This document shows, piece by piece, positions 2,288 to 8,763 of a stretch of 64,000 nt of DNA. Numbering within the stretch: position 1 is the first letter of the stretch; every line of letters starts with the position of its first letter. The position numbers and the translations under genes are program-made. The notes beneath the pieces are model-generated. The model did no database searches. It worked only from the letters and a program-made list of their open reading frames with translations, and was not told where the DNA came from. Origin of the DNA: a virus (Duplodnaviria; Caudoviricetes); the IMG/VR virus record IMGVR_UViG_3300021411_000005, positions 1 through 64,000 of that record. One strand, written 5' to 3'.

Positions 2288-2359
2288 AGCCCCCGGCAGG
2301 ACTTGAACCTGCGGCCAGCCGACTACGAAACGGCTGCTCTGCCACTGAGCTACGGGGGC
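2288..2359 (-). tRNA. tRNA-Thr(CGT) with atypical anticodon arm
   Basis: GCCCCCG/CGGGGGC acceptor stem, TAGCTCAGTGGCAGAGC D arm, GCCG-TTTCGTAGT-CGGC anticodon arm, GGTTCAAGTCC T arm. Confidence 0.9.
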
Positions 2360-2394
2360 GGTACGGCCGGACGGTTGCCCGTCCGGCCGGTTGT

Positions 2395-2481
2395 TCACCG
2401 CGGCCGGGGACCGCGCGGGTAGGGGTCAGGACCGGGATTCGGTGTGCCGGGCTTGGGGTCCGGCTTCGGGCCCTTGATCAC
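2395..2481 (-). CDS. 28-aa proline-rich micropeptide
   Basis: GTG start overlaps the upstream TGA (GTGA); MIKGPKPDPKPGTPNPGPDPYPRGPRPR. Confidence 0.4.
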   Translation of the reverse strand: MIKGPKPDPKPGTPNPGPDPYPRGPRPR

Positions 2482-2579
2482 TTGCCCGGAGGGGTCTTCG
2501 GCAGGAGCGGGCCCCGGATCTCCCGCTTTTCCGCGTCGGTCTTCGGGCTCCTGATCGGGCCGGGCTGTGCCTTCGCCAT
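2478..2579 (-). CDS. 33-aa Pro/Lys-rich micropeptide
   Basis: RBS AGGAAAGAGGAAGC-ATG; MAKAQPGPIRSPKTDAEKREIRGPLLPKTPPGK. Confidence 0.55.
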   Translation of the reverse strand: MAKAQPGPIRSPKTDAEKREIRGPLLPKTPPGK

Positions 2580-2595
2580 GCTTCCTCTTTCCTGG

Positions 2596-4194
2596 TCAGC
2601 GATTCGTGGCATCCGCCAGATTCGCGCAGTTGATCGCTCGGTACGACGGGGCCCCACTGCTCCAGCGGAGCAGGTCAGTGGCCGACGACGTCTGACCGGA
2701 GTCTCCCCGGTAGACGTAGCACCCGTCGTAGATGAAGCTCCCCTGCGTCTGCGCCGGGCCGTCGTACTGGTGGTATCCGGCGAAGGAACAGGATGTGTAG
2801 CGCACCGTGGGCCCGTTGCCCTGGTTCCACCAGGACTGGCCGGAGTACCGGTGCATGTTCCGCGTCAGGGACGCGGTGTTCTGCATTGACCCGTGGTCGG
2901 AACAGCCCTCGAACTGGACCATCCCCGATCCCCACGAACAGTCAATGATCTTGTGGCCGTCGCCCTTCGGCTCGAACTTCACGCCGCGGACAGCCAGGTT
3001 GGTGGCGCCCCTGTTGTTGCTGGAGGCGTTCGGCATCAGGAACCAGGTGATGCTCCCGGACGCCGATGCAGCCGACCAGGACCCGTTGTCCACCCGGACG
3101 TTCCCGCCCTTGTCGAGCCGGATCACCGTGCCGGAGGTCAGGGTCAGGCAGCAGTCGGAGAACCAGTAGTTCAGGAACTGGTTCTGCTGGTTGTAGAGCC
3201 CGGAGATTCCGCCGGAGCGGAAGAAGGCGTCCCGGAAGACGCTGTTCGTGGAGGTGAACAGCCGCCGGAAGGTCATCTCACTGTTCAGGTTGGCGGTCGC
3301 TCCGCCGTCGATCCCGAACACCCTGTCCCAGGAGCCCTGGAACTCGATGTCCTCCACCTTCCAGCCCTGGTTGTAACCGGACGTGTCGCCGACCATGTAG
3401 ACGAACCGGTTCTTGACCCCGTTGCTGATCACGGAGAAGCCCCCGATGTCAGCCCAGCGCAGGCGCCGGACCGCGGTGATCAGGTTGTTGGCCATGGGGT
3501 CCGCCGGAGCGTCGGCCGCCGGGTTGTCCCAGTAGAGCTGGGTGGCCCGCATGCCCTGGCCGCGGACCGACAGGCCCGCGATCTGGACCGTGTTGGCCGC
3601 CGCGGAGCTGATCAGCGGCTGGGTCAGGTGGAAGTTCCCCGGCGGGAAGACCAGGGTCTTCCGGGCGGCCCCGCCGGTCACGCTGGTCAGGATGTCGGCC
3701 ATGGCCGCCTGGACGGCCGCGTCGTTGAAGCCCTCCGCCACCAGGACCCGCTCAAACGGCCTGGCGGTACCTGTGACGGTCCCGGCCGGGCCCGGGTCTC
3801 CCTGGATGCCCTGGTCCCCCTTCGCGCCCTTCAGGGACGCCAGGAAGTCCCCCGGGGAGCCGTTGCTGTTGCCCGGCTGGTTGCGCCATTCGTCGTACGC
3901 GCTAGCTCCGTCCTCCCCGTCGTCTCCGTCGGTCCCGTCCGTTCCCGGACCGCCCTTCAGGGACGCCAGGAAGTCGGCCTCCGACTTCCCTTCGTTGCCG
4001 GGCTGGAGGAGCCAGAGCTGATAGGCGCTCTGGCCGTCGGCGCCGGACGGGGGGTTGGCCTCCCACTCCTCCACGGCCGACTTCACCGGGGCGAACGCCT
4101 CCTGAGTGGGGACCTCCACCTGGACGCACAGGTCCAGGGTCTGTCCGCTGACCTCCACCGGTTCGTGGGTCGTGACCATCACCGTGTCCGGCAT
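2596..4194 (-). CDS. collagen-like/SAYQ-repeat protein with C-terminal pectin-lyase-like beta-helix (fibre/depolymerase-like)
   Basis: GADGQSAYQLW and GEDGASAYDEW repeats, Gly-X-Y run (GAKGDQGIQGDPGPAG), LVFPPGNFHL and GQGMRATQL beta-helix entry motifs; ATG 4194 with AGGAGG. Confidence 0.7.
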   Translation of the reverse strand: MPDTVMVTTHEPVEVSGQTLDLCVQVEVPTQEAFAPVKSAVEEWEANPPSGADGQSAYQLWLLQPGNEGKSEADFLASLKGGPGTDGTDGDDGEDGASAYDEWRNQPGNSNGSPGDFLASLKGAKGDQGIQGDPGPAGTVTGTARPFERVLVAEGFNDAAVQAAMADILTSVTGGAARKTLVFPPGNFHLTQPLISSAAANTVQIAGLSVRGQGMRATQLYWDNPAADAPADPMANNLITAVRRLRWADIGGFSVISNGVKNRFVYMVGDTSGYNQGWKVEDIEFQGSWDRVFGIDGGATANLNSEMTFRRLFTSTNSVFRDAFFRSGGISGLYNQQNQFLNYWFSDCCLTLTSGTVIRLDKGGNVRVDNGSWSAASASGSITWFLMPNASSNNRGATNLAVRGVKFEPKGDGHKIIDCSWGSGMVQFEGCSDHGSMQNTASLTRNMHRYSGQSWWNQGNGPTVRYTSCSFAGYHQYDGPAQTQGSFIYDGCYVYRGDSGQTSSATDLLRWSSGAPSYRAINCANLADATNR

Positions 4195-4226
4195 GCTGCC
4201 TCCTGATTTAGTCCGATGGAGCCAGC

Positions 4227-4472
4227 TTAATCCCGGACGTCCTTCACCAGGACATAGCCGGTCTTCCACGGCTTGCCCATGAGGGTGTTCCGGTTCTCAT
4301 GCAGAGACGTAACGGAGATCCTCCGGTACCGGACCGGGTAGCCGTCCTGGACGGACGCAACCTCCACCCGGTGCTTCGGATCCCACCGGTCATCAGTGAC
4401 CCGGATCCGTGTCCGGACCCAGCTCCGGTGGAAGTCCGCAGCTTCGTACTCCTGGCCCTTCTTCACTGCCAT
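4227..4472 (-). CDS. hypothetical protein (81 aa)
   Basis: ORF track, RBS GAGGAAGGA. Confidence 0.7.
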   Translation of the reverse strand: MAVKKGQEYEAADFHRSWVRTRIRVTDDRWDPKHRVEVASVQDGYPVRYRRISVTSLHENRNTLMGKPWKTGYVLVKDVRD

Positions 4473-4549
4473 GGCAGTCCTTCCTCTCCGGGCCGATCAC
4501 CCGACAGGGGGAGCACGGACGGTTTCCCGCCCGCGCCCCCGACTGGAGA

Positions 4550-4690
4550 TCAGCTCTTGCCGTCGCCCTTCCTCTCCTCCTGGCGCCGCTTCCCGGCGCT
4601 GCTCTTCGTCTCACGGCCGGTCGGGTTCTTGCCCACCATGTCGCGCGGGTCCTTCGGACCCTGCCCCGGTGCGCTCGGCTGTCCTGCCAT
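4550..4690 (-). CDS. 46-aa charged small protein
   Basis: RBS CAGGAAGCGAGGAAG; MAGQPSAPGQGPKDPRDMVGKNPTGRETKSSAGKRRQEERKGDGKS. Confidence 0.55.
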   Translation of the reverse strand: MAGQPSAPGQGPKDPRDMVGKNPTGRETKSSAGKRRQEERKGDGKS

Positions 4691-4765
4691 ATGTGCTTCC
4701 TCGCTTCCTGTGCTGAGTGTCCAGAAGGGCGCGCGTACTCTCCAACGCGCGCCCTCCGTGGACGA

Positions 4766-4999
4766 TCAGTTCAGCGCGGCCAGTGCGGCCTGGACGGCCA
4801 CCTGGTAGTTCACCGCCGTGGCCAGCGGCTGGCCGACGGGGCACAGGGCCTCCGTCAGGCCGCAGCCGCCGGACGCTTCGTCCATCACTGCGAAGCACCG
4901 GGCGCACCCGGTGAGGTGGAAGGTCCACTCCGCGTAGACCGGCCAGTACGGCAGGGTCTCCAGCCGGTGGACCACCGGCAGCTCCAGGGGCGTGCTCAC
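4766..4999 (-). CDS. hypothetical protein with H/CxxC motif (77 aa)
   Basis: GTG start coupled to the upstream TGA; HLTGCARC...C...LC. Confidence 0.6.
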   Translation of the reverse strand: MSTPLELPVVHRLETLPYWPVYAEWTFHLTGCARCFAVMDEASGGCGLTEALCPVGQPLATAVNYQVAVQAALAALN

Positions 5000-5367
5000 T
5001 GCGCACCCCCGAACACCGGGACGTACCGCGGTCCGGCGGAGAGGTAGCCGCAGGCCGCCTGCTCCGCCGTCTCCCGGACGAACTCCAGCGCAGCGGCCAC
5101 GGGGACCTTCCGGGACGCCGGAGACACCCAGGGGGCGTTCTGGCGCTCCGTCCAGTAGACCGGGCGGCCGGTCATGGCGATATCCACCGCAGTGAAGACC
5201 GGGTAGGAGGGCGAACCCCACCAGCTCTCCGGGGTTCGCTCCGGCGTGACCTTCACCAGGCTGTACGGCGGGGTGAACCGGCCGCGCCCCGTCTGGGTCC
5301 AGCCAGCCCCCGCCAGGACTGCCAGCGCGTCCTTCAGCTTGTCGTACGGCGTCTGCCTGGCCATCAC
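4996..5367 (-). CDS. hypothetical protein (123 aa)
   Basis: ORF track; ends overlap both neighbours. Confidence 0.7.
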   Translation of the reverse strand: MMARQTPYDKLKDALAVLAGAGWTQTGRGRFTPPYSLVKVTPERTPESWWGSPSYPVFTAVDIAMTGRPVYWTERQNAPWVSPASRKVPVAAALEFVRETAEQAACGYLSAGPRYVPVFGGAQ

Positions 5368-5903
5368 GCCACGTTCCGTCCGGGGAACATCCGGTCCACG
5401 GCGCGGTCCGCGGCCAGACCGGCCGGGGACTCCGGATCGGAAGCCAGGAGCATGTGGGCCAGGTGGCGGACCACGACCGGCTGCGCCGGTCGGCGCCGGA
5501 CGGTCATGCTCCGGACCGTGAGCGGCGTCGGCCGGTCGGCCGCTGCGTACTCCGCGGCGCGCTTGACCTCCGCCTTGGTGGGGACACCGCTCTTCGGCTT
5601 GGAGACCGGGACGGGGTACAGGTGGCGGGACTTGTTCCCGCCGACCGTGTACGCCTTGATCCGGTCCAGGCGGAAGCTGCGGACCTCTGCCTCCGGCCGG
5701 TCGGCCGTCGGACGGTCCATCGCCCGTACGTAGTCGTCACCCGTGCTGTTCTGGGTGAGGGTGTAGGGCTCGATCGTCCGGAGGATCTCCGACCCGTTCG
5801 CCCGGGTGTACGTGACCGTGACCGGCCGCCGCAGCCGCATGGCACGGATGATGTCGGCCTTCAGCCGGTCTCTGCTGGCTTCGGTGCTGGTGACCTTGCG
5901 CAT
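5364..5903 (-). CDS. stand-alone WYL-domain protein
   Basis: IIRAMRLRRPVTVTYTRANG...RTIEPYTL...YVRAMDR...EVRSFRLDRI is the WYL signature. Confidence 0.85.
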   Translation of the reverse strand: MRKVTSTEASRDRLKADIIRAMRLRRPVTVTYTRANGSEILRTIEPYTLTQNSTGDDYVRAMDRPTADRPEAEVRSFRLDRIKAYTVGGNKSRHLYPVPVSKPKSGVPTKAEVKRAAEYAAADRPTPLTVRSMTVRRRPAQPVVVRHLAHMLLASDPESPAGLAADRAVDRMFPGRNVA

Positions 5904-5937
5904 GGCTTCCTCGTTTCCTGGGTGCTGCTGTGGTCCT

Positions 5938-5966
5938 ACTGTCCCGCGTCGAACGACCTATGTCAA
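5938..5966 (-). promoter_or_regulatory. sigma70/HrdB-like early promoter for the WYL operon
   Basis: TTGACA-17-GACAGT followed by the shared leader ACAGCAGCAC. Confidence 0.7.
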
Positions 5967-5979
5967 GTTGAGACGTAGA

Positions 5980-6391
5980 TCAATAAGAACTGCGGCCGGG
6001 CCGCCTGTCTCGGCTGCCGGACGGGTGTGAGTCCCGGAGGGTTCGTGCCACCCGGCCCACCGGAGGGAGTCCGGCCCGGCCGCTGTTCAGTACCCCCGGT
6101 GCGCCGTGACGCGCCTGCCGTCCGTGGTGACCGGCTGCCGGGGGTCCAGGGCCACCGCCTTGCGTTCGCATCCAGTGCGTTTCGTCGGCGGTGGTCCGTT
6201 CTGGGGTTTTCGTCGTTCCGTCCGTCGGGGTGCGGTGATCGCTTGCGCGTCGCTCCCGGTCCCTCCGGATTTCGCTGCCAGTTTTTCGTGGGGACTTGGT
6301 GGTCCGTCTCCCCCTTGCCAAGGTGGGGTTCCCTCTCCCGGTCTCCCGGGCCGCGCCCCTTGCGGGGCCGGTTCTTCGCTTTCCTTGGTAC
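5980..6391 (-). ncRNA. putative ~410-nt structured non-coding RNA of unknown class
   Basis: Own promoter immediately upstream, no RBS-led ORF, GNRA-capped hairpins, nested long-range stems, 5' GTACC pairing with GGTAC near 6090, T-rich end. Confidence 0.65.
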
Positions 6392-6397
6392 GGCTTA

Positions 6398-6426
6398 AGC
6401 TTCTCAGTAATCAGGGTCCGTGTCAA
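6398..6426 (-). promoter_or_regulatory. promoter driving the putative ncRNA; -35 lies within a 15-bp inverted repeat
   Basis: TTGACA-17-GAAGCT; TCAGGGTCCGTGTCA-AGTTT-TGACACGAACCCTGA (14/15 match). Confidence 0.7.
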
Positions 6427-6475
6427 GTTTTGACACGAACCCTGACCTGCGACGATGAAACTAGTTCATGATTCT

Positions 6476-6679
6476 TTAGCTGTGGTGGACTTCATGGGGC
6501 CGCGCATCGTTCAGTACGACGGCCACGGAGGACGCCGTGGACAGCTCGGTGTACCGGCACACGATGTCCTCCACGGTGTGCATGGAGCCCTGGCGCTTGG
6601 TCTCCGACCGGCGGACCACGACGGCATCCATCAGGCGCTGCCGGGCTTCGTAGCGGACAGTCTTCTTCAGGGCTGGCAC
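6476..6679 (-). CDS. hypothetical protein (67 aa)
   Basis: GTG start with RBS AGGAATCC; MPALKKTVRYEARQRLMDAVVV. Confidence 0.55.
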   Translation of the reverse strand: MPALKKTVRYEARQRLMDAVVVRRSETKRQGSMHTVEDIVCRYTELSTASSVAVVLNDARPHEVHHS

Positions 6680-6849
6680 TTCGGATTCCTGTTCTCTCGG
6701 ATGTGGTCGGCCGCTATGGCCAGGTTCTCTTCCACAAAGCGGGTGTGCTGCTCCGGCAGGCAGTCCGGCCGGTCGCACTCGACAGCCTCCCGGATGACCT
6801 CCGCGGCGAACTGCGCGGTCTGCTCCACGGGCGTGCTGATCAGGCCCAT
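6667..6849 (-). CDS. hypothetical protein (60 aa)
   Basis: RBS CAGGAAACGAGGAACG; ORF track. Confidence 0.65.
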   Translation of the reverse strand: MGLISTPVEQTAQFAAEVIREAVECDRPDCLPEQHTRFVEENLAIAADHIRENRNPKCQP

Positions 6850-6882
6850 CGTTCCTCGTTTCCTGGGTGGTCAGTGCTGAGC

Positions 6883-6936
6883 GCCTCCGGCGCGCCGTGA
6901 CGCGCATGCCGTCTGTGGAAACCGGCCGCCGGAGGC
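6883..6936 (-). repeat. second copy of the structured RNA module at 6093..6144
   Basis: 38-nt interior is 32/38 identical to the first copy and is closed by a different but still paired stem (GCCTCCGG/CCGGAGGC). Confidence 0.75.
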
Positions 6937-6942
6937 TCTGCG

Positions 6943-8763
6943 CTAGGACTCCATCAGGTTCTTCAGTACGGGCCCGTACTGCCGACGCTGGCCCAGGAGG
7001 CTGTTCTCCACCAGGGTGTCCACGAAGCGGCGCGCCATCGCGTTCCCGTGCCCGGCGCGGACCGCGAACGCAACGGCGTAGACGATCTCCCCACTGGGCC
7101 CGGCTTCCCGGGCAGCCTTCTGCGCGGCCAGCACGCCACGGCTCCAGGCCAGGGCCTCCCCGCTGTCCCAGTTGACCGCCATGGACCGCGGGACCGGTAC
7201 GCCGTAGTAGACGCCGGTCGGGTGCACGCTCCCGGTGCCCGCGTCCCGGCCGGTCGCCAGGGAAGCCTTCAGGCCGGACACCTGGGCTGCGACAGAATCC
7301 GGGATCGGGATCAGCCGGTCGGCATCCGTCTTCAGGTCGGCGGTGAACGGCGTCCCGTCCGGCAGCGTGCCGGTCATGTCCGGCCCTTCCCAGGTGGCCG
7401 CCATGGAATCGGCGGACGGGTCGCGCCGCGGTCCGCTGCCGGGCGTGAGGCCCAGATGCGTCTGGACGATCTCTCCGGCCACCCGCAGGGACTCCGGAGC
7501 ATCCGCCCCGTGGACGGGGCACGACGGGTGTCCGTTGCAGCTCCAGGAGTTCGTCCCCGGGTTCCAGAGACACCGGATGTCCGCCATGGGCAGCTCTTCG
7601 CCGGTCGGCATGGAGACCCGGTACTGGCAGTCGGGCGCGTGCCCTTCGCCAACGGAGCACGCGCAGCCGAGGAACCGGGCGCTGACCGGTCGGTCTCCCT
7701 GGAGCCGGTGCACTGTCGGCAGGCTGGCCTCCGTCTCGATCACCCAGACCCGGGAATCGGCCAGCACGTACACGGTGCCTTCGTGGCAGTGAACCTGGGA
7801 GCCGCGGTCTGTCTGAATCCGGTACTCCACGGTTCCCAGAACCGTCTTCACGCGGTCCTGGCCGGACGGTCCGTGACTCCGGGCGGACGGCCCGGCCCAG
7901 CGCAGCGTCACCCGGGTGATGCGGTCGCTGGCCAGCCAGCCCACCGGGACATAGGAGGCGATGACCGGGAAATCCCGCAGCCGGAGGAAACCGGGGTACG
8001 GCGCATGGACCTCTTCCTCCGTCAGGTCCAGCACCGGGGAGCAGTCAGCGCAGTGCCCGCACGCGTCCAGGTCGGCCGCGTCCACAGCGCCGCACCGGCC
8101 GTCCTCCACCAGCTCCCGCGCGGTCGGAACCTCGGAGTACGCCGTCTCCAGCGCCTCCTCTTCACTGAACCGGTCCGGGTCGGCCGGACGCTCGATGCCC
8201 AGTACCTCCCGGGCGTAGGACCAGCCCTCCGCGGTCAGCACCGGGTAGTGCCACGGGGCGCCGTTGTTGTCGGCCACGTTGTGGTCCCGGGTGACCAGGC
8301 CGCGCGTGATCAGCGCGTCCAGCGTCTTGCTGGCCGCGTAGGCCACGGTGCCCTGGTGGCTGTTCTCCGCGGCCTGGCGGATCTCACCCTTCATGTTGTC
8401 CGTCAGCCGGTCGTTGCCGCCGTTCTGGAACACCGGCTTGTCGGCCGCGGGGGCAACCGGCGCGGTGCCTTCCTTCTCGGAGACCAGGAGACCGCCGTAC
8501 TTGTGGTCGGTGACCGTGTACCGGTCCTCCAGCGCCTTGGCGTAGGAAGCAACAGCGGCTGCACGCCGGGTGTTCTGCTGCTCCGCGGTCTGGCGCCGGG
8601 AGTCGTCCCCGCTGACGAACTCCACCCGGGCGCTGTCCCCGGCCTGCGTCACCTGGAAGCCGGGGGAGTAGTTCTGCCAGCCGCGGATGGCCGTGGAGAA
8701 GGACTCACTGCGCTCGAACGACTTCCCGAGGAACCGGGAGATGGTGCTGGCCTTGACCGTCAT
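6943..8763 (-). CDS. large modular early protein (606 aa) with a winged-helix-like module
   Basis: ATG 8763 follows the promoter, leader and RBS; KTLDALITRGLV...LTAEGWSYA module. Confidence 0.75.
   Translation of the reverse strand: MTVKASTISRFLGKSFERSESFSTAIRGWQNYSPGFQVTQAGDSARVEFVSGDDSRRQTAEQQNTRRAAAVASYAKALEDRYTVTDHKYGGLLVSEKEGTAPVAPAADKPVFQNGGNDRLTDNMKGEIRQAAENSHQGTVAYAASKTLDALITRGLVTRDHNVADNNGAPWHYPVLTAEGWSYAREVLGIERPADPDRFSEEEALETAYSEVPTARELVEDGRCGAVDAADLDACGHCADCSPVLDLTEEEVHAPYPGFLRLRDFPVIASYVPVGWLASDRITRVTLRWAGPSARSHGPSGQDRVKTVLGTVEYRIQTDRGSQVHCHEGTVYVLADSRVWVIETEASLPTVHRLQGDRPVSARFLGCACSVGEGHAPDCQYRVSMPTGEELPMADIRCLWNPGTNSWSCNGHPSCPVHGADAPESLRVAGEIVQTHLGLTPGSGPRRDPSADSMAATWEGPDMTGTLPDGTPFTADLKTDADRLIPIPDSVAAQVSGLKASLATGRDAGTGSVHPTGVYYGVPVPRSMAVNWDSGEALAWSRGVLAAQKAAREAGPSGEIVYAVAFAVRAGHGNAMARRFVDTLVENSLLGQRRQYGPVLKNLMES

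Follow-up and report, generated by a model that had tools for sequence, protein, structure and literature searches.

What does an early phage promoter produce when no gene follows it? The question is raised by the window analysed here, a stretch of 64,000 nucleotides that forms the initial 64 kb of a 75.9-kb viral record in IMG/VR with 68% GC (G000). Within a series of leftward early genes on the minus strand, a promoter had been predicted to fire into a stretch without an RBS-led open reading frame (ORF) and to yield a structured non-coding RNA (ncRNA). The unit in question and the transcription unit that follows it are:

Window 6391 to 5980, minus strand: ORF-less RNA unit of ~410 nt, between a predicted promoter and a predicted terminator
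Window 5364 to 5966, minus strand: WYL transcription unit, with an early promoter of its own (-35 at 5966 to 5961), a ACAGCAGCAC leader and the gene of a WYL-domain-only protein (5903 to 5364, 179 aa)

The 179-aa protein matches Pfam WYL (E 6e-11). Because its relatives sit in Streptomyces and Kitasatospora genomes, the host of G000 is probably of the Streptomyces/Kitasatospora type.

The unit is non-coding

Window 6391 to 5980 is non-coding. Across 5904-6475 the GC level is flat over the three codon positions, with no third-position excess in any frame, which bears out the predicted lack of an RBS-led ORF; the neighbouring genes each reach ~0.9 at the third position. The minus-strand RNA consists of 23% A, 35% C, 35% G and 6.8% U, making it the lowest-U window of 300-400 nt within the 75.9-kb genome, and with ~70% GC it is among the largest non-coding gaps in G000. 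Its signature is G equal to C, A in large excess over U, and G-C helices joined by A-rich linkers. The scarcity of U, and hence of stop codons, leaves a frame of 148 aa open. This frame begins at a TTG (6426) within the -35 hexamer of the promoter, the sole upstream start, which places it ahead of the point where transcription is inferred to begin. No called protein is on record for any of the three longest frames in the stretch, and the 148-aa frame has no homologue among 5.8 billion proteins. Used as a DNA query after back-translation, it returned nothing among the matches listed for viral_contigs, metagenome_contigs and genome_contigs, and a protein search with the opposite-strand frame gave low-complexity matches only.

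Blastn of the locus and tblastn of the WYL protein against 50,697 GenBank phages each yielded zero matches, and Pfam and PHROGs supplied no name for ten further neighbouring proteins. An RVT_1 match, as expected alongside a retron or DGR template RNA, is absent from the 75.9-kb record. In a 2025 soil metagenome from another study, 5913-6072 and 6090-6323 are present at 0-1 mismatches, the flanks being matched by more divergent contigs only, at a depth of ~3; this match shows presence of the sequence elsewhere and little more. Among public sequencing runs, the carriers listed for the stretch include no RNA sample.

A predicted early promoter precedes the unit

The promoter region comprises the following elements, listed with further promoters of the related phage G001:

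Window 6426 to 6421 (-35 TTGACA) and 6403 to 6398 (-10 GAAGCT), minus strand: promoter of the ORF-less unit with a 17-nt spacer, placed by sequence alignment
Window 6411 to 6445: inverted repeat I3, a palindrome with 16-nt arms, 94% complementary, centred on the -35 region
G001 53874, 55167, 55704, 59050 and 60349, minus strand: five further promoters of the class

The predicted TTGACA-17-GAAGCT promoter is indeed found at 6426 to 6398 of the minus strand, and transcription is inferred to start near 6392-6390. The four other promoters with which it had been contrasted (5966, 8831, 9909 and 40725, all minus) read TTGACA-N17/18-GAnnnT and lead into ACAGCAGCAC-RBS-ATG, a leader that the promoter of the ORF-less unit lacks; their shared pattern is GTGTCAnnACTTGACA-N17/18-GAnnnT. 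The promoter of the unit aligns with nine members of the class in G000 and G001 and with four in the related contigs L065, L067 and L068, its -10 GAAGCT differing by one base from the GAAGAT of L068. The stretch 6450 to 6398 combines TTGACA, a 17-18-nt spacer and GAnnnT with an upstream palindrome or CGCAGGTCAG block, as seen in the 13 other examples that align. A generic sigma-70 scan, which needs a closer match to TATAAT, detects no member of this class. The palindrome at 6411 to 6445 is the probable operator of the class; a comparable one encloses the 8831 promoter, which has the -35 in common with the unit as well.

Several features of these promoters were observed alongside. Their leaders are of two types, either the short ACAGCAGCAC leader or a structured leader that opens with the H1 GNRA hairpin described below, and several of the promoters lie within long operator-like palindromes (16-nt arms at 6411-6445 and around 8831). 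The block AAAGAATCWTGAACnnGTTTCAT...CGCAGGTCAG lies upstream of promoters at window 6440-6476 (minus strand), L003 3340-3375, and L065 2128-2165 and 5585-5620. Because the L065 copy at 2128 comes after a terminator and not after the end of the 67-aa gene, the block appears to act as an upstream promoter element with an imperfect palindrome and not merely as a gene end. In G001, a U-poor structured leader of 125 nt (59020-58890, minus strand) connects a promoter that has no ACAGCAGCAC motif to the 606/632-aa gene homologue, and has a GGCCAACGAGAU-like sequence in common with the L065 leader at 2346-2375. An identical 18-nt stretch, CACCCAGGAAACGAGGAA, occurs in the RBS leaders ahead of the WYL gene (5907-5924) and the 60-aa gene (6852-6869), both on the minus strand.

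The predicted transcript is assembled from modules

Apart from the Y module (6090 to 6147), which is treated separately below, the predicted transcript has these parts, all on the minus strand of the window:

6351 to 6391, minus strand: lineage-specific 5′ extension, with CCAAGG pairing to CCUUGG at 6322 to 6317 and a CCCC-GCAA-GGGG hairpin (MFE fold)
6337 to 6350, minus strand: H1 hairpin, CCCGG-GAGA-CCGGG
6273 to 6355, minus strand: conserved core of ~85 nt (blastn and pairwise alignment with L065, L067 and L068)
6201 to 6272, minus strand: lineage-specific middle domain, A-rich, with CGAAA linkers and a CGC-GCAA-GCG hairpin (MFE fold)
6149 to 6200, minus strand: P hairpin, nested CCACCGCC/GGCGGUGG around CG/CG around CGCA-CUGGA-UGCG, containing the anchor CGAACGCAAGGCGG
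5987 to 6088, minus strand: terminal long hairpin, inverted repeat I1, with GAACUGCGGCCGGGCCG-type arms of 17 nt (6088-6072 / 6003-5987), 94% complementary (MFE fold)
5982 to 5991, minus strand: U-rich tail AGUUCUUAUU, forming an intrinsic-terminator-like site with the terminal hairpin

All three GNRA-capped hairpins of the original prediction (loops GCAA, GAGA and GCAA) are present in the MFE fold, as are the nested CCAG, CCACCGCC and CGCA stems, and the CGAAA motif said to recur occurs four times. The terminal domain that was thought to close the RNA corresponds to the 17-nt arms followed by the AGUUCUUAUU tail, and a terminator scan places a GC-rich hairpin at 6004 to 5992, followed by the U-rich tract AGTTCTTATT, at the base of this same hairpin. 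The hairpin also holds two CCCUCCGG motifs (6066 and 6040). The proposed long-range pairing of GUACC with GGUAC is not supported; the GGGGGUAC segment falls within the Y module, which covaries, as part of its 3′ strand and trailer. Fold energy alone is weak evidence, because the z-score of the unit (-2.7 to -2.8 on the minus strand, -1.15 on the opposite strand) lies only at about the 5th percentile among same-size windows of G000, of which 2 of 38 are as low.

In agreement with the reported lack of tmRNA, RNase P, SRP and group I/II intron hallmarks, no Rfam 15 family, 6S, HEARO and the riboswitches being among those covered, reaches its gathering threshold at the locus, and the covariance-model check gave no family match there even at E up to 10, apart from one chance microRNA hit. 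Elsewhere in the window, only three tRNAs pass the Rfam 15 gathering threshold. As judged by these searches, the RNA and its Y module belong to no known family.

H1, with a GAGA or GAAA loop, lies 8-10 nt past the -10 element in seven early promoters of five related contigs, one of them the WYL promoter of L064. Its general form is CCNGG-GNRA-CCGGG, and sequence variation is confined to the GNRA loop. The RNA of the relatives begins at H1 and lacks the 5′ extension; in G000 the 45-nt extension shifts the hairpin inward. A 15-mer of H1 matched 51 IMG/VR loci, in promoter context in G001 only. The P hairpin is 79% identical to L064 2403-2454, which lies in the 5′UTR of a 102-aa gene; there the inner stem CGCA/UGCG is exchanged for CACA/UGUG with pairing compensated, and the outer stem is wholly different. 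For the middle domain (6201 to 6272) no homologue was found.

These data uphold the single ~410-nt structured ncRNA of the original prediction only in part. The unit is non-coding, strand-specific, built of hairpins, bounded by a predicted promoter and terminator, and conserved in some of its parts, but one integrated ornate fold of ~410 nt is not supported. Homologues exist only for the ~85-nt core, the short CGAACGCAAGGCGG anchor, the P hairpin and the Y module; the remainder is lineage-specific and gives way to other domains in relatives, so that roughly half of the 410 nt lacks any homologue. The covariation called for by the prediction is likewise uneven, being present in the Y module, limited in the P hairpin to one compensated pair plus the replaced outer stem, and absent from the nearly invariant core. 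RNAalifold, applied to three or four sequences, yielded no global fold that could be trusted.

Related phages carry the core ahead of a tRNA

Homologues of the downstream WYL-only protein provided the entry to related phages on contigs from other soil metagenomes; the 64-aa, 606-aa and TraB-like proteins led to no relatives or to one marginal contig. In L065, L067 and L068 (L066 is identical to L065), the slot that separates the 67-aa gene from the WYL gene spans 416-431 nt and holds no called gene. In every case it opens with the same type of promoter followed by the ~85-nt core, and after ~150 variable nt reaches a true tRNA-Glu(CUC), with an Rfam tRNA score of 53 bits in L067 and L068, and then directly the WYL RBS. 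Rfam detects the tRNA and nothing else at these loci, whose RNAs are U-poor as well (9-11%).

By alignment, the core is more conserved than the neighbouring genes: it is found by blastn at E 1e-14 to 1e-17 in L065, L067 and L068 with 82-84% identity (87-90% in pairwise alignment), and the flanking genes show 75-81% identity to the same relatives. A 31-mer, GACGGACCRCCAAGUCCCCACGAAAAACUGG at 6308 to 6278, is kept in all four loci with one variable position. A partial second copy of the core, followed directly by a Y module, forms the leader of the 477-aa gene in L065. The comparison shows that four parts of the unit (H1, core, P hairpin and Y junction) recur in related phages in the same orientation. 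In wider searches, an 18-mer of the invariant core gave chance hits only in JGI metagenome contigs and zero in IMG/VR, and the module pattern GACGGCANGCGCGTCACGGCGC had zero matches in IMG/VR. The RNA family is known from four sequenced loci only; contigs carrying the P0010 protein, which have a gap of 514 nt at the slot, may provide a fifth.

The content of the slot differs among other relatives. In G001, the closest full-length relative, it holds a 68-aa ORF, a tRNA-Glu and a second tRNA, and lacks the core; beyond the H1 hairpin, no homologue of the RNA was found in this genome. An A-rich, U-poor patch at 47.1 kb of G001 was considered as a counterpart and rejected as coding. L070 and L071 have two tRNAs in the slot, L064, L069 and L083 an ORF or almost nothing, and nothing homologous was found in L008. 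Since the G001 slot lacks the core, the RNA is dispensable in the lineage.

The relatives have features of their own. Their long hairpin keeps its shape across the variants ACAGCC/GGCUGU, ACGGCU/AGCCGU and CCCGGGG/CCCGCGGG, pairing being retained in lower stems of different sequence. Their RNA (L065 5830-5860 and the equivalents in L067 and L068) includes an invariant hairpin, GGUCCUCC-ACAGCACG-GGGAGGAG, whose loop resembles the ACAGCAGCAC mRNA leader. In the 3′ domain of the RNA, GAUCCACCUCC and GGAUCAC recall the end of 16S rRNA that bears the anti-Shine-Dalgarno sequence; G000 lacks both features. The second tRNA of the G001-type slot (L003 3813-3896 and equivalents in L070/L071) is 84 nt long and is called tRNA-Arg(GCG) by ARAGORN, which puts its anticodon at position 36; class I tRNAs do not usually have this geometry. 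On the contig carrying P0011, from a related phage, a gene at 2104-2502 lies a few genes upstream of the WYL gene and codes for a Phage_ProQ_C_like protein, the domain being a putative RNA chaperone.

A covarying junction occupies the tRNA position

Between the P hairpin and the terminal hairpin, the unit contains a compact junction that belongs to a family:

Window 6090 to 6147, minus strand: Y module A, a 58-nt three-way junction with an 8-bp closing stem and two hairpins (CM R2, 81.6 bits)
Window 6881 to 6938, minus strand: Y module B, paralogue of A, flanked by the 606/632-aa gene (stop at 6943) and the RBS of the 60-aa gene (CM, 79 bits)
L065 2294-2346, 4010-4062 and 4445-4499; L064 2807-2860; L068 1105-1156; L069 2143-2195; L083 267-319; L202 1501-1551: Y copies outside G000
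L209 (G002 61000-74000) 2340-7840: seven Y copies within 5.5 kb of the complete phage G002

Modules A and B are 80% identical, with changes in the closing stem compensated, and the covariance model retrieved 17 copies in eight contigs, every one in sense orientation. In G002, where the spacing was measured, four of the seven copies lie 4-21 nt past a stop codon. Across the family, 98% of the pair cells are paired, compared with 31-43% when partners are slid, and 10 of the 16 pairs have changed on both sides, including all eight of the closing stem; none of 500 shuffles reaches the observed values. The alignment was fitted to the model, which biases it toward the structure, and the margin is large. 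Copies are 52-58 nt long and fall into a long subtype, with GCGCGUCAYGGCGC as second hairpin, and a short one (GCCCGCGAAGGGC). The conserved first hairpin reads CGGUCNCCACGGACG, and CAC or UAC forms the 3′ trailer. In at least eight phage contigs, early operons contain the Y module as a recurring element between genes. Because Y modules sit between co-transcribed genes, transcription must pass them, and for this reason they are likelier to be processing or stability signals than full terminators.

Y module A lies in the slot that tRNA-Glu takes in L065, L067 and L068. Both have in common a 5′ CCCCCG, ACGGCAG, AGGCGCG at the start of the T-arm position, and a 3′ CCGGGGGUACU with trailer, and alignment to tRNA-Glu outscores every one of 500 shuffles in the case of module A and all but one of 500 in that of module B. 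As a tRNA, module A was rejected: it has no anticodon arm and no T loop, and no tRNA finder accepts it, ARAGORN reporting none at 6147 to 6090 and RF00005 being absent even from an 86-nt search at E up to 10. With an acceptor-like closing stem of 8 bp, a tRNA-homologous position and residual similarity, the Y module is tRNA-like in its alignment features and probably tRNA-derived; these features show resemblance and probable ancestry, not function.

A model for the unit and its alternatives

On balance, and with modest confidence, we favour a model in which the locus is an early, ORF-less transcription unit of a Streptomyces-type tailed phage, homologous along its length to the precursor of structured leader and tRNA-Glu that heads the WYL operon of relatives, its transcript being cut or protected at the Y module to leave a stable U-poor RNA whose core binds a factor. 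Compared with the relatives' precursor, the G000 unit has a 5′ extension, an enlarged middle, a terminator of its own and a Y module in place of the tRNA, and is without their long hairpin. The predicted promoter would fire early, as its class does, and transcription would read through the Y module and halt at the terminal hairpin. The Y module may derive from, or mimic, the acceptor end of the tRNA-Glu held at the slot in relatives, and would serve as a processing or 3′-protecting signal, most likely for RNase P or RNase Z and otherwise for RNase III. The product would be a stable U-poor RNA of about 250-300 nt, in which the invariant core may present a binding surface for a phage or host factor.

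An unlikely but possible alternative is that the RNA has no role of its own and acts in cis as a leader or attenuator, in which folding, or a factor or ligand bound to the core, sets read-through of the terminal hairpin into the WYL gene and beyond. In L065, L067 and L068 the WYL gene lacks its own promoter and directly follows the RNA and tRNA, so that the homologous RNA is the 5′UTR of the WYL operon; in G000, by contrast, a full promoter and leader belonging to the gene itself lie 20 nt past the U tail. H1, core, P hairpin and Y modules also act as 5′ leaders or intercistronic spacers of protein genes: the WYL leader of L064 consists of the H1 hairpin alone, and H1, a partial core and the P hairpin are found in the 5′UTRs of other protein genes. 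The two GGGA and two UCCC segments of the core can form alternative pairs, but the terminator hairpin, with its 17-nt GC arms, faces no obvious competing antiterminator, and there are zero matches to known riboswitch families. Because the G000 unit has become independent of the WYL mRNA, which is served by a separate promoter, a role residing in the RNA itself is favoured over that of a mere leader.

To a similarly low degree, the locus may be a decaying relic, in which the tRNA disappeared from an ancestral leader-tRNA-Glu cassette once the WYL gene had gained its own promoter, the remnant being a non-functional spacer that looks structured from its former RNA modules. The large gains and losses of whole domains relative to L065, L067 and L068 speak for a relic, as do slots that hold an ORF and tRNAs, tRNAs only or nothing in different relatives, yet the core is more conserved than the flanking genes, and the promoter hexamers and operator palindrome are intact. 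That tRNA finders refuse the module at the tRNA position also counts for a relic, but the module is a full-scoring member of a covarying family of 17 copies and not debris. The fold-energy statistic is unremarkable; U depletion to 6.8%, on the other hand, goes beyond that of the relatives and spans lineage-specific parts in which neutral decay should have erased it, and the unit is closed by a proper hairpin and U tail.

That the locus works as a DNA-level element (origin, packaging site or attachment site) rather than as RNA is very improbable. It is among the largest non-coding gaps of the genome and contains repeats and palindromes, but the asymmetry of A and U at equal G and C is strand-specific, all homologous modules are in the sense orientation of their operons, compensatory changes keep intramolecular pairing, and a locus of ~70% GC shows neither iterons nor an AT-rich unwinding region. 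Least probable of all is a protein product, whether the arginine-rich 148-aa frame or a 63-aa piece from an internal AUG at ~6173: 148 codons are open and the purine-rich 5′ extension resembles phage RBS leaders, but the purine-rich stretch leads to no start codon, the low U content (7% on the RNA strand) makes open frames likely on either strand, and codon-position composition, the position of the TTG, the homology searches on both strands and the record of called proteins all speak against it, as described above.

Relation to known phage RNAs

The favoured model of a processed, stable RNA places the unit among two kinds that are already known, phage structured RNAs travelling with tRNAs and tRNA-like processing elements. 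The tRNA cluster of phage T4 yields stable RNAs (species 1 and species 2, or RNA C and RNA D) that are non-coding, structured and of unexplained function, co-transcribed with tRNAs and released by tRNA-processing enzymes. The G000 RNA resembles them as a phage-encoded structured ncRNA that travels with a tRNA, but the T4 RNAs are ~140 nt long, lie in a cluster of eight tRNAs and have no sequence relation to it. The actinophage RNA measures 230-410 nt and heads a protein-gene operon in relatives, and in G000 a tRNA-like junction stands in place of the tRNA.

GOLLD and ROOL, invoked in the original prediction as a precedent for the category, are apter than was claimed, as the homologous unit of the relatives is co-transcribed with a tRNA. 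Both are frequent in prophages and occur near tRNAs, possibly through co-transcription (Weinberg et al. 2017, PMC5737381). Like the G000 RNA they are non-coding, with many stems and unexplained function, but their mean length is 581 nt or more, and their multistem junctions and pseudoknots are conserved, whereas in G000 only ~85 nt and separate modules are conserved, and neither Rfam model matches the locus.

For the Y module, a parallel is offered by tRNA-like structures within longer transcripts, at which RNase P and RNase Z generate the ends of mRNAs or ncRNAs: the t-elements of plant mitochondria (Forner et al. 2007, PMC1920247) and the MALAT1-mascRNA arrangement. The Y module resembles t-elements and MALAT1-mascRNA in its acceptor-like closing stem, its occurrence in a tRNA slot and its location mostly just past stop codons, its own cleavage being putative. 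Whereas t-elements keep the GGTTCRANYCC motif of the T arm, the Y module has neither T loop nor anticodon arm.

A further parallel lies in the intercistronic RNase III sites of the phage T7 early operon. These sites, like the terminators of phage phiC31, shape mRNA ends and stability. The phiC31 early region is reported to have Rho-independent terminators without poly-U tails (Ingham, Hunter & Smith 1995, reference 34 of PMC2602773). The Y module shares with both kinds of element a recurrent and orientation-specific placement between early-operon genes. The T7 and phiC31 elements are simple or bulged hairpins, and the Y module differs in being a three-way junction with conserved loop sequences.

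A broader reading goes further and is more doubtful than either the leader or the relic explanation. Soil actinophages might run a tRNA-punctuation system of early-mRNA processing, in which host enzymes cut a tRNA-derived junction after stop codons, together with a dedicated trans-acting ORF-less RNA that concentrates H1, core, P hairpin and Y module. Such an RNA might, for instance, be a decoy that occupies RNA-decay or processing enzymes of the host, or the RNA partner of the adjacent WYL-only protein.

Phage ncRNAs that travel with tRNAs, such as the T4 stable RNAs, GOLLD and ROOL, have defied explanation for decades. The G000 RNA is a small and tractable example, because the same RNA is caught in several states: as a bare 5′ hairpin before a WYL gene, as a leader with tRNA and WYL gene, and as a free-standing unit in which the tRNA has given way to a compact junction. 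If the relic explanation were true instead, the locus would be a snapshot of a phage tRNA gene decaying into a structural RNA element. The Y module itself, short, multi-copy and strongly covarying, is a candidate RNA-processing or stability signal in Streptomyces-type hosts.
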